From Escherichia phage VEcB, in the sequence record NC_052663.1: 64,000 bases of DNA, one strand, 5' to 3'. A model generated the notes under the pieces. It saw nothing but the letters and a program-made list of their open reading frames with translations. It had not been told where the DNA came from and made no database searches. Shown in pieces: positions 26,370-31,492 of the stretch. The position numbers and the translations under genes were made by a program. Numbering within the stretch: position 1 is the first letter of the stretch; each line of letters opens with the position of its first letter.

Positions 26370-28256
26370 ATGTATCCTATTCCTTTATTTATGTCAACAA
26401 CATCAGCTTCAGTAGTAACAGCTACATCTATAACCACTTCCTCTATTGGTATTGCAATAGTTGGTAGTAAAAAGCAACTGACATACACAGTTTCACCGGA
26501 AGATGGTGCGTTATTTGATATAGCTTTTTCATCTTCAGATAATACCAAAATGGTTATAGATAATAGTGGTATGATGGAGTTTGTTGCCGAAGGTGGTTTT
26601 GATGCAATAATGACAGCTAAAAATAATTTAGGTGCTGTCTTAACTGATCAATCTGGTGGTTATGCTTCAGAATTAAGCGTGTACACTGAAAGTCTATCCG
26701 CTATGGATGTAGGCACTACTCAACAGTTGGTTGCTACAATCAGTCCAGAAGGTGCTAAAGACCTTCCAGATATGGTAATTACATACACCACAACAGATCC
26801 AGAAGTAGCTACTGTAAGCCCTACAGGATTAATAACTGCTCTTAAAGATGGCAATTGCCGTATAGGTTGTACTGCAACGTATCAAGGAACAGTTGTGGCC
26901 TCTGATAGTTCTTATTTAGGTGTTAATGCTATTCCTGTTATTTCTAATGTAACAGCCGTGGCAAACAGTTATGGAGACGTTCGTGTTGCTTGGGATGTAA
27001 CTGATCCACTAGACGGTGATACTTATACTGTAGAAGTATTAGATTTAAGTGATAATAGTGTTCAGTGGACTACAACAACCACGAATACTTACGCTTACTT
27101 TGATATCTCTGACTCTATTCCTCTTTATGGGTTTGCTCCAACATACCTTAAAATTAGCGTTAAGAGCACCAAAGCAGCAGCCGTTATCTTTAATAACTCA
27201 ATAGCTACAGATGATTCGTTCATTAAAGAAGTTATTGTCTTTGCTGGACAAGATAACGTAAATGCACACTTTACAGAATTATCTGGTGCAAATAAAGCAG
27301 TAATGAGTAGCACAACAACCCGTAATGCATATGCTACGCAACGTGGTTTAGCAAATGCTGAAGTTCTTCCGTTAAATACAGCTTCTGGATCATCAGCAGC
27401 AGATAAATATGCTGACGATAAAGCTGGAACAGGTACACCAGACAACTACTGGTATGATCTGGATAACACAGCAGATGGGCCATGCTTAACTAACTTTATC
27501 ACTAAAGTCACACCTTATGCAAGTAAGGTTAAAGCAATTATTTGGGGACAAGGTGAAAATGATGCTGTATCAGCATCTTCGACTGTTGCAGGTAGGTACA
27601 GTAACACTACACGTTACCATGATGCTACGATAGCTATCTTTGATAAGATGCGTACAATAGTTCCTGCTTCTCAAGCAAAAATTGTTTGGCAGATCCTAGG
27701 ACGTTCTTATTTATATGGTGTAGAAGTTAATGGTGTGGATTGGCAGAAGTACAGAAATGTACAAAGAACCATCTCTACAGCACGTGATGATGTTATCATT
27801 GGTTCTTGGGTAGATGGTGCTGAACGTTACAGTGGTTATGTTTATGAAGAAGGTATTGATGGTCGTATCCATTATATTTCTTCTGTATATCAAACAGCAG
27901 CTACAAAACTTGCTAAATCAGCAGCAGACGGTACAGATTTAACATCAACACCACCTGTTTGGGTTGATATGTCTGTTCCAACAGGAGGAGCCGCTGTAAG
28001 ACAAGCTAACCAAGATGCAATTATTTCTTGGGAACCAGCAGGATATACCAAACATTACTTCCGAAATGTAAACGTCCTCACAGCAGCAATTCTTACAGAA
28101 CAAACTCTTGATACTAACACTTACACATTTACTTATGCAGATCAGGTTGAACAATACGGGTTTGCAGCAGGTACAGCAGTGTTTGATGTTGCACACTATG
28201 ATGCTGATAATGACGTGTTATCACCTCTTGTCAGATTTACAGTCAATGTTACATAA
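26370..28256 (+). CDS. virion-associated protein with Big_2-like Ig domains and SGNH/SASA-type esterase domain
   Basis: 628 aa; two Big_2-like segments (e.g. VATISPEGAKDLPDMVITYTTTDPEVATVSPTGLITALKDGNCRIGCTA); esterase-like blocks VIVFAGQDNVNAHF and AIIWGQGENDA resembling sialate/carbohydrate O-acetylesterases. Confidence 0.5.
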   Translation: MYPIPLFMSTTSASVVTATSITTSSIGIAIVGSKKQLTYTVSPEDGALFDIAFSSSDNTKMVIDNSGMMEFVAEGGFDAIMTAKNNLGAVLTDQSGGYASELSVYTESLSAMDVGTTQQLVATISPEGAKDLPDMVITYTTTDPEVATVSPTGLITALKDGNCRIGCTATYQGTVVASDSSYLGVNAIPVISNVTAVANSYGDVRVAWDVTDPLDGDTYTVEVLDLSDNSVQWTTTTTNTYAYFDISDSIPLYGFAPTYLKISVKSTKAAAVIFNNSIATDDSFIKEVIVFAGQDNVNAHFTELSGANKAVMSSTTTRNAYATQRGLANAEVLPLNTASGSSAADKYADDKAGTGTPDNYWYDLDNTADGPCLTNFITKVTPYASKVKAIIWGQGENDAVSASSTVAGRYSNTTRYHDATIAIFDKMRTIVPASQAKIVWQILGRSYLYGVEVNGVDWQKYRNVQRTISTARDDVIIGSWVDGAERYSGYVYEEGIDGRIHYISSVYQTAATKLAKSAADGTDLTSTPPVWVDMSVPTGGAAVRQANQDAIISWEPAGYTKHYFRNVNVLTAAILTEQTLDTNTYTFTYADQVEQYGFAAGTAVFDVAHYDADNDVLSPLVRFTVNVT

Positions 28257-28289
28257 ACAAAAAGGAGCCAATAGGCTCCTTTTCTTTTA
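28257..28289. terminator. bidirectional rho-independent terminator at convergence of the two modules
   Basis: 7 bp stem AGGAGCC/GGCTCCT (loop AATA) flanked by A-rich 5' and T-rich 3' tracts, so it is a U-tract terminator on either strand; lies between convergent stops at 28256 and 28292. Confidence 0.65.
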
Positions 28290-28291
28290 TC

Positions 28292-28723
28292 TTAATCAGT
28301 GAAAATTACGCTCACATCTTCTTTAGAGAAGAGTTTATGATCTTCACCTTTTGTCTCAAGAGTTTCATACAGGTTAAGAAGTTCTGAAACATCTTTCTCT
28401 ACTAGTTTCTTCAATGTTGCAATTTTCTGTTTGCGATTTTTAATACGTTCAGCTACAACCTTACGTTGGTATCCGGCAGTACGATAACCTGAGAAAGTTA
28501 CACCAGTGAGACTTGCAGTTACAGGATCGTAATGACGTTCAATCTGAAATTTATTAAAAGGTACAGCGTCATCACGAATAATCTTACCGCCATTACTTAC
28601 TTGACGAAGACCAGTAACTTGTTCTAGTCGTGCCATAGAAATCTTTGGAGACAGACCAGAGTCCAGGTTCATACCGTTGTTAATCAGTGCTTTCAGGGTG
28701 ATTTTGCTGTTCAGTGTACTCAT
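28292..28723 (-). CDS. hypothetical protein
   Basis: 143 aa; ATG at 28723 with GGAGGA RBS 8 nt upstream; start overlaps the last 44 nt of the methyltransferase gene. Confidence 0.4.
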   Translation of the reverse strand: MSTLNSKITLKALINNGMNLDSGLSPKISMARLEQVTGLRQVSNGGKIIRDDAVPFNKFQIERHYDPVTASLTGVTFSGYRTAGYQRKVVAERIKNRKQKIATLKKLVEKDVSELLNLYETLETKGEDHKLFSKEDVSVIFTD

Positions 28724-29411
28724 TTAGTCGTTCCTCCGCTTGCTTAAAAATATTTACATCGGCTTCACAGCCTAAGTATTCTCTACCTGTTAAAAGTGCC
28801 GCAACTTGTGTTGTTGCACTCCCAGAGAAGAAGTCTAAGACTACATCTCCTTCGTTGGTGTGTATATTAATAAGGTCACAAAACAAAGTCAAGTGTTTTT
28901 GTGTTGGATGAAAACGATCTGCTCCTTGATAGATAGGATACTCAAACACACCCTTATGGTAGGAAGCATTGAAGGTTGGCTTCGAACCTTTAACACAAAC
29001 AATAGCCATCTCTTTAGCGTTACTAAGATAGTTAACACCACTGTTGATGGGTACAGGGTTTGTTTTAATCCATTCGATAGTACGGAACATACGAAAACCA
29101 AGCGGTTCAAGGATTTCACGTAGCTCCTGGATCTTCCAGATATCATACCAAACTATGCAAGTACCACCTTTTCTAAGCACCCTGTAGGCTTCTTTGAATA
29201 CTTCTTTAAAGTAAGGAATATCTACAACATCCCAATCACCAAAGTTGTAAGATACACGGAATCTATCCGTATCTTTTCCAGTAGGCTCTCCAGATTGAAA
29301 ATTTGTGTCACGAGAAATAGCATATGGTGGGTCAGTAAGAATCAAATCTACACTATTGCTTTCGAGGGTTTGCAGGTAGTTTAATGCGGTGTTGTTTACA
29401 AATTCGCTCAT
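28680..29411 (-). CDS. DNA methyltransferase, beta-class amino-methyltransferase (N6-adenine or N4-cytosine)
   Basis: 243 aa; catalytic motif IV LILTDPPY near the N-terminus and SAM-binding motif I FFSGSATT near the C-terminus (IV before I is beta-class order); RBS AAGGAG. Confidence 0.8.
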   Translation of the reverse strand: MSEFVNNTALNYLQTLESNSVDLILTDPPYAISRDTNFQSGEPTGKDTDRFRVSYNFGDWDVVDIPYFKEVFKEAYRVLRKGGTCIVWYDIWKIQELREILEPLGFRMFRTIEWIKTNPVPINSGVNYLSNAKEMAIVCVKGSKPTFNASYHKGVFEYPIYQGADRFHPTQKHLTLFCDLINIHTNEGDVVLDFFSGSATTQVAALLTGREYLGCEADVNIFKQAEERLNEYTEQQNHPESTD

Positions 29412-29420
29412 TATATCTCC

Positions 29421-29449
29421 TTCAAAGAAAAGGAGCCGTTAGGCTCCTT
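29421..29449 (-). terminator. rho-independent terminator (minus strand) downstream of the SSB-like gene
   Basis: 8 bp stem AGGAGCC/GGCTCCT, followed on the minus strand by TTCTTTG; sits between the SSB stop and the methyltransferase RBS. Confidence 0.5.
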
Positions 29450-29471
29450 ATATTCACACAATATTTAACTA

Positions 29472-30419
29472 TTAGAAACAGTGCAGGAAGTTTCGACCAT
29501 ACTGCAAACCAATAGGAGCAAATGGGATATCATCATCGAAATCTTGAACAACAGGTTCTGGTTCTTTCGGTGCTGGCTCTTTCTTCTCTACTTTTTTAGT
29601 TTCTTTCTTAACTTCTTGTACTGGGGTAGACATTCCACGGATAGCAGCAGCTACTTTATCAGACAAAGCAAGAACTTCACGAGCAGCTTCAATAATCTCT
29701 TCTGCCGTTACAGTTTTACCTGTATGATCACGACAAGCGTTAAGAATTGCGTGTCCAACTGAAGCACCAAGATCATAGTCAGTCACATCAACGCCACGAT
29801 CTTTAGCAATTTCTGCTTTCAGAGTAACAGTTGCAGATTGTACCACACCAGCCAAGTCGAAAGCATCACCTTTCACACCAGCACGTAGAAGCTCCAGAGC
29901 GCCATTTACAGCGTGTCCTGTTTCAATCCCTACAGTATCACGTTTTTTGTAGTTAGGTTTGCTACCTTCGTTATTAGATGGCTTATTTCCACCTTTTGAA
30001 GAAGATTGTGCTTGCTGAACACCTTCTGTTGAAAGAACAGTGATTTTACCTTTAGAGGAGTTGTAGTATGTTTTGCCATTCCATTCGGAAGGTTTAACAT
30101 CCATAGTTACTTCTACACCTTTTTCGATAGTAATCCACTTATCACCATCTTTAACTTGCAGGTTTTCATGTTCTGGGTGCAGTTTAACTTCACCTAGGCT
30201 AACCCAAACACCTTTATCATCAGCACCAGCACCTTTCTCTTTAATAAGCAGAGATGCTTTGTGAGTTGATTCAATTTTCTTATCTGGCTGACCTGCAACC
30301 TTAATATAAGAGACTTTCATTTCATCAAACTTATCCAGTTTGACATATTCAACGATACCTTCAGCCCAGAATGCTTCTTTTTTAGTACGACGGTCGATTT
30401 CAGAATTAATTACTGGCAT
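29472..30419 (-). CDS. putative single-stranded DNA-binding protein with SSB-type acidic C-terminal tip
   Basis: 315 aa; extreme C-terminus DFDDDIPF preceded by Lys/Glu/Pro-rich linker, as in bacterial SSB C-tails; N-terminal domain not obviously canonical OB-SSB. Confidence 0.5.
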   Translation of the reverse strand: MPVINSEIDRRTKKEAFWAEGIVEYVKLDKFDEMKVSYIKVAGQPDKKIESTHKASLLIKEKGAGADDKGVWVSLGEVKLHPEHENLQVKDGDKWITIEKGVEVTMDVKPSEWNGKTYYNSSKGKITVLSTEGVQQAQSSSKGGNKPSNNEGSKPNYKKRDTVGIETGHAVNGALELLRAGVKGDAFDLAGVVQSATVTLKAEIAKDRGVDVTDYDLGASVGHAILNACRDHTGKTVTAEEIIEAAREVLALSDKVAAAIRGMSTPVQEVKKETKKVEKKEPAPKEPEPVVQDFDDDIPFAPIGLQYGRNFLHCF

Positions 30420-30877: not shown

Positions 30878-31492
30878 TTAAATTTTAAATTCTTCGTTGT
30901 TAAATGAATCCAGTGTACGTACTTCTGGTTCTTTGGGAATGAAAACGTCTTTTACAAAGCGGAACATAGGGAAACGTTCTGCCATTTTACGGACGTGTGC
31001 TTCTTTACCTGTGTATCGGTGATTAATAGTACAAATATTAGTTTTCAGTGCAAATTCAAAATCTGGATGATATACATAATTTTGACCATCCCAGTAACAC
31101 AAGCAAATAGCTACATCAAAGTTCCATACGATTTCACTGCGTACACCTTCTTCCATGATCATAAAGTTAAACTTAAGATCTTTATAGTATGCTTCAAATA
31201 CCCATTTCAAATGTGGTAGTTCGGCATAAGTGTGTTCTGTTTGCTTAGTAATTTGTTTAACATTACGTGCACCAACACCCAACATCAAAAATTTCTCTAC
31301 TAATACAAGTGTATTGTGGTTAGGCATACGCAAGTAAATGTCAATATCTTGCGCAGGTTTCTCTAATCGCCAGTCACGTACAGCGCCGCCAGCTACAATT
31401 GCAAACGGATCTACCAGTTGGCACATACGTAATACTTCTAAAGCTCGTACTTTTTGATCTTCAATATTCATATTTTCTCCTATCGTGTCCAC
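30878..31492 (-). CDS. polymerase-beta-type nucleotidyltransferase, CCA-adding-enzyme-like head domain
   Basis: 204 aa; motif FAIVAGGAVRDWRLEKPAQDIDIYL (GG-x12-DxD) closely resembles the catalytic head of class II tRNA nucleotidyltransferases; no HD domain present. Confidence 0.5.
   Translation of the reverse strand: MDTIGENMNIEDQKVRALEVLRMCQLVDPFAIVAGGAVRDWRLEKPAQDIDIYLRMPNHNTLVLVEKFLMLGVGARNVKQITKQTEHTYAELPHLKWVFEAYYKDLKFNFMIMEEGVRSEIVWNFDVAICLCYWDGQNYVYHPDFEFALKTNICTINHRYTGKEAHVRKMAERFPMFRFVKDVFIPKEPEVRTLDSFNNEEFKI

Follow-up and report, generated by a model that had tools for sequence, protein, structure and literature searches.

Restriction-modification (R-M) systems directed at CATG are the closest described relatives of the gene pair considered here. 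NlaIII, an HNH Type IIP enzyme (PMC2441816), cuts CATG, and N6-methyladenine (m6A) blocks the cleavage (PMC6191088). NlaIII and IceA1 of Helicobacter pylori belong to the His-Me-finger family PF05315 (PMC5714182, PMC2441816). The hpyIM gene, which lies beside iceA1, encodes a CATG-specific methylase, and the iceA1/hpyIM pair mirrors the NlaIII system (PMC4202330, PMC13340068). We analyzed a 64,000-nucleotide stretch of Escherichia phage VEcB (NC_052663.1), hereafter the window, which comes from a phi92-like Justusliebigvirus (myovirus). Two overlapping open reading frames (ORFs) on its minus strand are the orthologues of phi92 gp155 ("methyltransferase") and gp154 ("hypothetical"), and we use these names below. 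It is very likely that gp154 is a nuclease-less derivative of the N-terminal domain of an NlaIII/IceA1-family endonuclease, and its methylase neighbor probably modifies CATG.

The relationship of gp154 to endonucleases became visible at the level of profiles. The protein matches phrog_20244 (E 4e-83), a group of unknown function, and searches with gp154 in Pfam, NCBIfam, PADLOC and the PDB sequences gave no match. A word-indexed protein search returned only four clusters. An exhaustive profile search of 1.8 billion protein representatives extended the family to about 32 clusters of 100–143 aa, with identity down to 26%. The same search returned a 206-aa protein (P0031, E 1.4e-5), in which a gp154-like N-terminus is joined to an HNH/Cys4 C-terminus. 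The N-terminus of this protein, DLEDLTGLKIVGNGCKIRDDGS, mirrors the gp154 segment RLEQVTGLRQVSNGGKIIRDDAV, and its C-terminus carries the pattern DHKHG...N...CxxC...CxGCYWYDP. We also examined 80 viral loci with gp155 homologues. In 12 of them the gp154 profile matched the gene adjacent to the methylase, upstream or downstream. These neighbors are 190–250 aa long and are members of Pfam PF05315 (ICEA) with E from 3e-25 to 2e-36. Alignment of the gp154 family with IceA-type endonucleases by hhalign gave a probability of 97.6% and E 4.6e-12 over gp154 residues 13–83, and the reciprocal search with the IceA hidden Markov model found gp154 with E 1.4e-9. Residues N44, G45, R50 and D52 are invariant or nearly so in the gp154 family; among them N, G and R never vary in the endonucleases either. 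Since the gp154 family keeps the N-G...R-x-D residues that are invariant in the N-domain of the endonucleases, the protein probably still recognizes CATG.

The second half of the endonuclease is missing. Neither gp154 nor any other of the 29 family members has the C-terminal HNH motif (D-H-K...N) or the two CxxC zinc sites, and none of the 29 matched Pfam ICEA even at E up to 1. A search for a separately encoded HNH half, made across the window and the complete genome of Pseudoalteromonas phage J2-1, another carrier of gp154, gave no match; a split restriction enzyme was rejected on these grounds. Because the HNH/zinc half is absent from gp154, its family and the window, gp154 is neither a member of ICEA nor an endonuclease of that type. 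HNH genes do occur near some gp154 loci, and they resemble homing endonucleases. In one divergent relative, an insertion with an ORF of this kind (L004, 269..740; ...CAVCGAHNVVAHHKDYDKPLEVNWLCPKHHEAWH...) separates gp156 from the methylase, and J2-1 has an HNH gene two genes upstream of its gp154 homologue.

In the AlphaFold2 (AF2) model of gp154, a 43-residue helix stands where the nuclease domain would start and is followed by a short terminal helix. The confidence of the model depended on the depth of the alignment: the predicted local distance difference test score (pLDDT) was 94.9 with 29 sequences and 54 with five. The long helix probably serves for dimerization. Structural searches with the model returned only winged-helix DNA-binding domains with weak scores and a viral "ICEA1" protein. 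The C-terminal end of the family (window positions 28292..28330) carries a conserved motif (L/I)(F/Y)(S/N/D)xxD(V/L/I) after the long helix, which is absent from the endonucleases. This motif could be a docking peptide for a partner. The dN/dS of gp154 (ratio of nonsynonymous to synonymous substitution rates) is about 0.10–0.22 with saturated synonymous sites, which indicates purifying selection.

Judged from its sequence, gp155 is an intact compact beta-class amino-methyltransferase, an ordinary new member of a known family. It matches Pfam PF01555 (N6_N4_Mtase) over profile positions 1–221 of 221 with E 1.9e-30 and 106.9 bits (cut-off 26.7), and phrog_67 with E 2.5e-56. The catalytic motif IV lies N-terminal to motif I (FSGS, residues 195–198), which is the beta-class permutation. 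Thus the motif order and the PF01555 match bear out the preliminary description, made from the DNA letters, which had called the gene product a beta-class DPPY methyltransferase with motif IV before motif I. The best solved relative is the H. pylori enzyme 5HEK/5HFJ (232–240 aa), aligned over the full length with E 1e-28. The adenine-specific 5HEK and CcrM are among the closest solved relatives, and the N4-cytosine enzyme 8S9M matches weakly. The DPPY motif and these relatives point to an N6-adenine methylase. About 4700 clusters are related to gp155 at E <1e-20, mostly of 231–245 aa; its conserved core stops near residue 231, and the final 12 or so residues vary in sequence and length. In every database record, gp155 is labeled as an orphan or "putative site-specific" methylase and gp154 as hypothetical, in a PHROG of unknown function. 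A literature search for published methylomes of phi92-like phages found none. More distant homologues of gp155 with about 47% identity also occur in tandem triplets of PF01555-type genes on viral contigs (L051-L080, IMG/VR, mostly sample 3300045988), and these methylase arrays have no IceA or gp154 neighbor.

The likely target of gp155 is suggested by its company. The protein is 45–55% identical to methylases that adjoin intact IceA/NlaIII-type endonucleases in bacteria and on viral contigs, and its predicted target is probably CATG, with C(m6A)TG as the product. We examined the 80 best bacterial IceA-type loci, among which Helicobacter and Neisseria did not occur. A methylase of the gp155 type adjoins the endonuclease in 13 of them: in 12 it is directly upstream on the same strand, often overlapping the endonuclease gene, and in one the two genes are convergent. 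The other loci among the best 80 have a different methylase family. Specificity for GAGG, by analogy with the H. pylori structure, was also considered and rejected, as the counts of GAGG/CCTC in the window are unremarkable.

The gp154 family was found in three configurations. In the first, a beta-class methylase and gp154 stand together in at least four unrelated neighborhoods, which include the phi92-type replication module, a place beside PhoH (L016) and a place between the dihydrofolate reductase (DHFR)/ThyA genes and ribonucleotide reductase (RNR; L017, L018). Because the neighborhoods are unrelated, the pair moves between phages as a unit. The same conservation supports the preliminary description in its claim that the methylase and the overlapping ORF are functionally linked. 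In the second configuration, a divergent gp154 subfamily follows a non-homologous methylase of 178–190 aa with an NPPF motif (phrog_799, E 1e-28 to 1e-32), which precedes gp154 with an overlap of 4–25 nt. In the third, gp154 stands alone. In loci L011-13 it is located directly after gp156, between the equivalent two terminators, and in L011 it has its own promoter, TTGACG-17-TAATAT, which suggests early expression by the host polymerase. In phage J2-1 (MF988720.1, L181-L183) it is located near ThyA/DHFR/RNR. Further scans of viral and metagenome contigs and proteins for gp154-only genomes yielded few new long contigs.

Independently of the homology, we then compared the frequency of CATG in these genomes. 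The window contains 91 CATG sites versus 227 expected (ratio 0.40, z -11.3), which makes CATG the most depleted of the 256 tetramers. As controls, the related coliphage rV5 gave a ratio of 0.85 and E. coli K-12 one of 0.75. Of the 19 loci with gp154 that were examined, 12 had CATG as their most depleted tetramer and three others had it in second place. On viral contigs that carry a gp155-type methylase and a full IceA-type endonuclease, the ratio was 0.38–0.42. It turned out that the carriers of gp154 alone lack the site completely: each 8.4-kb locus of L011-13 contains 0 CATG versus 25–26 expected, and the complete J2-1 genome (142,204 bp) contains 0 versus 348 expected.

Among the gp154 carriers, the methylase has thus been swapped for a non-homologous one, and the site is absent where there is no methylase. 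Both patterns would be expected if the activity of gp154 must spare phage DNA, which is the logic of an R-M system. A role as a methylase subunit is hard to reconcile with the second and third configurations, and a decoy against restriction would be superfluous in each of the three. With these two roles disfavored, the R-M logic favors a nuclease-less, methylation-sensitive reader of CATG. The pair does not make a canonical Type II R-M system, as the methylase is present and its partner has no recognizable nuclease domain. The explanation that we favor overall, with a probability of roughly 45%, is a cassette derived from an R-M system in which gp154 acts as a nuclease-less "R". Such a protein would bind unmethylated CATG on non-phage DNA, either of the host or of a competing phage, and would harm or silence this DNA. 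It might act as a roadblock, or its C-terminal helix and tail might recruit a further factor. The phage's own DNA would be exempt, its CATG sites being either marked by the linked methylase or missing from the genome altogether. An R-like action on foreign DNA is tentative in itself, somewhat short of an even chance, and its mechanism is one that we infer. It is possible, with still more doubt, that gp154-type proteins form a "nuclease-free restriction" module of lytic phages, in which immunity is provided by an adenine methylase of any class or by a purge of CATG.

Several points weigh against an R-like role of gp154. A nuclease-less protein has no demonstrated route to DNA harm. The CATG specificity of the cassette, which we consider fairly likely, rests on association and site depletion. 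Many IceA-type endonucleases pair with another methylase family, so that the link between the families is not one-to-one. Around gp155 homologues without a gp154 or IceA neighbor, the pooled CATG ratio is still 0.57, and two loci that have both the methylase and gp154 are near normal (0.70 in L015 and 0.86 in L018). The J2-1 genome (142 kb) is also free of CCGG, with 0 sites versus 95 expected. Thus, the loss of sites could reflect host restriction pressure rather than an activity carried by the phage. The purge of CCGG from J2-1 indicates that such pressure contributes at least partly. Loci L011-13 are known over about 8 kb only, and a distant methylase is possible there. Finally, the class in which gp154 stands alone comprises only two independent lineages.

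Among the other explanations, the best placed, though unlikely, is that an ordinary orphan methylase stands beside an exapted small DNA-binding protein whose present role is unconnected with CATG or methylation, such as that of a phage replication or transcription factor, and that their linkage is historical. The position of gp154 fits this idea, since it closes the phi92-like replication module (DNA polymerase, nucleotidyltransferase and the single-stranded DNA-binding-like gp156), and loci L011-13 retain it in that position without a methylase. The long helix and the conserved C-terminal tail, new relative to the endonucleases, also fit it. However, the pair enters unrelated neighborhoods as a unit, and a non-homologous methylase has taken the place of the beta-class one. 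The residues that gp154 has in common with the endonucleases, which putatively contact bases, are still invariant, and the zero CATG count of the methylase-less carriers would have to be a coincidence.

The pair may instead serve against host restriction, which we consider a little less probable again. The hosts of these phages would carry NlaIII-type CATG endonucleases. The methylase would shield phage DNA, and gp154 would be a captured fragment of the host enzyme that neutralizes it, whether as a dominant-negative partner or by sitting on CATG sites; the depletion of CATG would then be ordinary site avoidance. Many bacteria have IceA-type endonucleases (one scan gave 319 matches), and m6A blocks NlaIII (PMC6191088). 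The CATG ratio of 0.57 around orphan gp155 homologues and the purge from J2-1 of CCGG, a site unrelated to gp154, are also expected from host restriction. Yet gp154 would be redundant everywhere, as it always occurs with a methylase or in a CATG-free genome. The protein is made after DNA entry, too late for incoming DNA, and a protective methylase makes depletion to 0.27–0.47 needless. In addition, neither rV5 nor E. coli is strongly depleted in CATG. For the methylase itself, protection of phage DNA against host restriction, as the preliminary description proposed, is possible. The panel of systems used to phenotype phi92-like phages (EcoRI, EcoRV, EcoKI, EcoP1I and others) reportedly had no enzyme that recognizes CATG. 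If so, the exceptional sensitivity that these phages showed toward the tested restriction systems (PMC8594841) agrees with a narrow CATG methylase and speaks against a broad one.

It is improbable that gp154 is an accessory of the methylase, either a specificity or targeting subunit for an enzyme whose own target-recognition domain is minimal or a regulator that controls methylase expression in the manner of a controller protein. The initial reading of the overlapping ORF as a specificity or regulatory subunit does not hold against a family that occurs without the methylase, occurs with an NPPF methylase and is homologous to an endonuclease N-domain. Where there is no adjacent methylase, gp154 persists in genomes that have no CATG substrate, and its pairing with a different methylase class argues against a specific protein–protein fit. 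Among the relatives of gp155 (about 4700 clusters), most viral homologues have no such partner. No Xre-type helix-turn-helix or controller-protein family was matched by gp154; its gene is downstream of the methylase, and the fold is winged-helix-like and not Xre. These points outweigh the tight conservation and overlap of the pair, the compactness of gp155, comparable to that of its closest solved relative, and the DNA-binding-like fold of gp154. The correlation of H. pylori iceA alleles with hpyIM transcription (PMC13340068) also speaks for an accessory role. Decay of gp154 to a non-functional fragment of a restriction gene, as is known for the mutated or truncated majority of H. pylori iceA1 genes (PMC13340068), can practically be dismissed in view of the intact ORFs of 125–143 aa in about 32 clusters, the low dN/dS at saturated synonymous sites, the strong ribosome-binding site (RBS), the separate promoter in L011 and the confident fold prediction.

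The coordinates of the gene pair, its domains and its signals are collected in Table 1.

Table 1. Features of the gp155–gp154 region, in positions of the 64,000-nucleotide window (SAM, S-adenosylmethionine)
Feature	Position	Strand	Remarks
Bidirectional intrinsic terminator	28259..28284	.	common to gp154 and the convergent tail gene; 11-pair stem, T runs on both strands
gp154 orthologue, 143 aa	28292..28723	-	ATG 28723-28721; +1 frame relative to the methylase
Long helix, gp154 residues 83-125	28349..28477	-	replaces the HNH/zinc nuclease domain; AF2 secondary structure
Winged-helix-like domain, gp154 residues 13-83	28475..28687	-	homologous to the IceA/NlaIII endonuclease N-domain; N44-G45...R50-x-D52
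Dual-coding stretch, 44 nt	28680..28723	-	non-conserved C-terminal tail of the methylase (residues ~230-243) and the first 14 full codons of gp154 (part of the 15th)
Methylase, gp155 orthologue, 243 aa	28680..29411	-	ATG 29411-29409, stop TAA 28682-28680
gp154 RBS GGAGGA	28732..28737	-	8 nt before the ATG, within the methylase codons for AEER; annotated in phi92
SAM-binding motif I DFFSGSATT, residues 193-201	28809..28835	-	D193, F195, G197, S198, T200, T201 invariant
Catalytic motif IV DPPY, residues 27-30	29322..29333	-	direct reading; invariant in 15 homologues
Methylase RBS AAGGAG	29417..29422	-	read in the sequence; annotated as RBS in phi92
Terminator-like hairpin GGAGCC-N4-GGCTCC with T run	29430..29449	-	between gp156 and the methylase

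The overlap of the two genes and the GGAGGA site inside the methylase coding sequence, which had been pointed out beforehand, are both real and can be read directly; in one relative (L003) the counterpart of this site is AAGGAGAG. On the evidence of the sequences, the 143-aa ORF does begin at the upstream ATG. The ATG that follows (M18, 28672) has no Shine-Dalgarno sequence, residues 1–17 align with a conserved N-terminal helix of 28 homologues, and four orthologues 55–66% identical to gp154 all begin at the homologous ATG. The length of the overlap is not conserved, and it was rejected as a feature of the family: in relatives it is 4, 8, 20, 29, 41, 44 or 71 nt, with 44 nt in L004 and 71 nt in L003 and L005 (the gene caller had chosen later starts). 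With this variation from 4 to 71 nt, the overlap is no special device; it is the close packing of an operon and stems from the M-then-R gene order. Synonymous divergence in the first 15 codons of gp154 was 0.38–0.53 in five of six pairs and 0.73 in the sixth, compared with 0.64–0.82 in the rest of the gene. Lower values in this part are what is expected for dual coding.

More than 50 sequenced phages, phi92 among them, match the region 27800-30000 with 98–99.3% identity. Four of the matching records (MG065639, MG065645, MG065656 and MG065689), 98.3% identical to the E. coli phi92-like region, are named "Campylobacter phage" with the host C. jejuni. This host label is doubtful and may be due to contamination or mislabeling. 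The minus-strand block runs in the order DNA polymerase I, nucleotidyltransferase, gp157, gp156, methylase and gp154, and it converges on the tail genes. Thus, the methylase is the penultimate gene of a replication block, in which the 143-aa ORF is the last, and not the first early gene after the convergent terminator as was supposed. The stem GGAGCC-N4-GGCTCC occurs in two copies in 64 kb (0.01 expected), at 28264..28279 and 29432..29447, and these flank the methylase–gp154 pair. We looked for a promoter between the upstream hairpin (29430-29449) and the methylase and found none. In the methylase-less L011, the equivalent two terminators enclose gp154 and its own promoter, which suggests that there was a one-gene unit beforehand, into which the methylase was inserted or from which it was lost.

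Among the neighbors, gp156 (29472..30419, minus strand; phrog_4477, 315 aa) has no Pfam match. Some relatives have it annotated as a single-stranded DNA-binding protein and others as a hypothetical protein. At 30878..31492 on the minus strand lies the gp158 nucleotidyltransferase, whose homologues in L003 and L005 have weak matches to PF26128 (Gad2). On the plus strand, an Ig-like (Big_2) tail protein (26370..28256) is a single ORF of 628 aa in the window and 942 aa long in phage Nernie. In phi92 the same place is occupied by gp152 (202 aa) and gp153 (295 aa; "no RBS, weak statistics"). The tail protein is variable in length, and phi92 may be mis-annotated or frameshifted there. The 930-bp length difference of some relatives was considered as a cassette insertion and rejected, as it sits in this tail gene.

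New here are the conserved disarmed partner of endonuclease origin and its link to CATG-free genomes. The origin of gp154 supplies a testable specificity, CATG, for the methylase of therapeutically used broad-host-range coliphages. It would also explain why CATG is the most depleted tetramer in the window and is absent from methylase-less relatives, and the pair is a possible example of viral repurposing of R-M genes. If gp154 acts as proposed, a disarmed R-M system would give phages a system of a new category, for offense or for host takeover. In that case gp154 would be a sequence- and methylation-specific DNA reader, a potential tool and a new means by which a phage discriminates its own DNA from that of the host. 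Should this proposal fail, two genes have nonetheless been cleanly re-annotated, and the case warns that phage methylases described as "orphan" may not be so.

Two of the systems with which the pair can be compared offer analogies of mechanism. T4 Alc is a modification-sensing host-shutoff factor by which a phage separates host DNA from its own. The replication terminator protein (RTP) is a winged-helix protein that acts as a roadblock on DNA. RTP combines a winged helix with a long dimerizing helix, similar to the predicted architecture of gp154; its Foldseek match is weak and non-significant (rank 28), and the resemblance is taken here as an analogy. The methylase resembles the compact beta-class N6-adenine enzyme 5HEK/5HFJ (deposited as "DpnA") in length and motif order. 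The relationship is only moderate, however, and GAGG/CCTC is not strikingly depleted in the window, although 5HEK/5HFJ, which we take to be M1.HpyAVI-like, would suggest such a site: the reported target of M1.HpyAVI is GAGG-like. Like the orphan methyltransferases of phages that serve anti-restriction, gp155 is found in a lytic phage without a nuclease; unlike them, it keeps a conserved and selected derivative of the cognate endonuclease. In the chlorovirus PBCV-1, an early-expressed CATG adenine methylase, M.CviAII, lies beside the "R" gene of R.CviAII (PMC7248222), an enzyme classified apart from NlaIII (PMC2441816). The phi92-type pair is similar in that a viral methylase with a predicted CATG target stands beside a gene derived from R, but R.CviAII is a real nuclease and the phi92-type partner is not. 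The closest comparison is with NlaIII of Neisseria lactamica and with IceA1-HpyI, encoded by iceA1/hpyIM of H. pylori. As in these systems, the endonuclease N-domain is present in gp154, an adenine methylase adjoins it and CATG is under selection; in H. pylori, too, the R gene is often degenerate (PMC13340068). In contrast to both, gp154 has no HNH/zinc domain, falls below the Pfam ICEA threshold and has acquired a new long helix and a conserved tail. Nor is gp154 a sporadic frameshift product; it is a conserved family maintained by selection in lytic phages.

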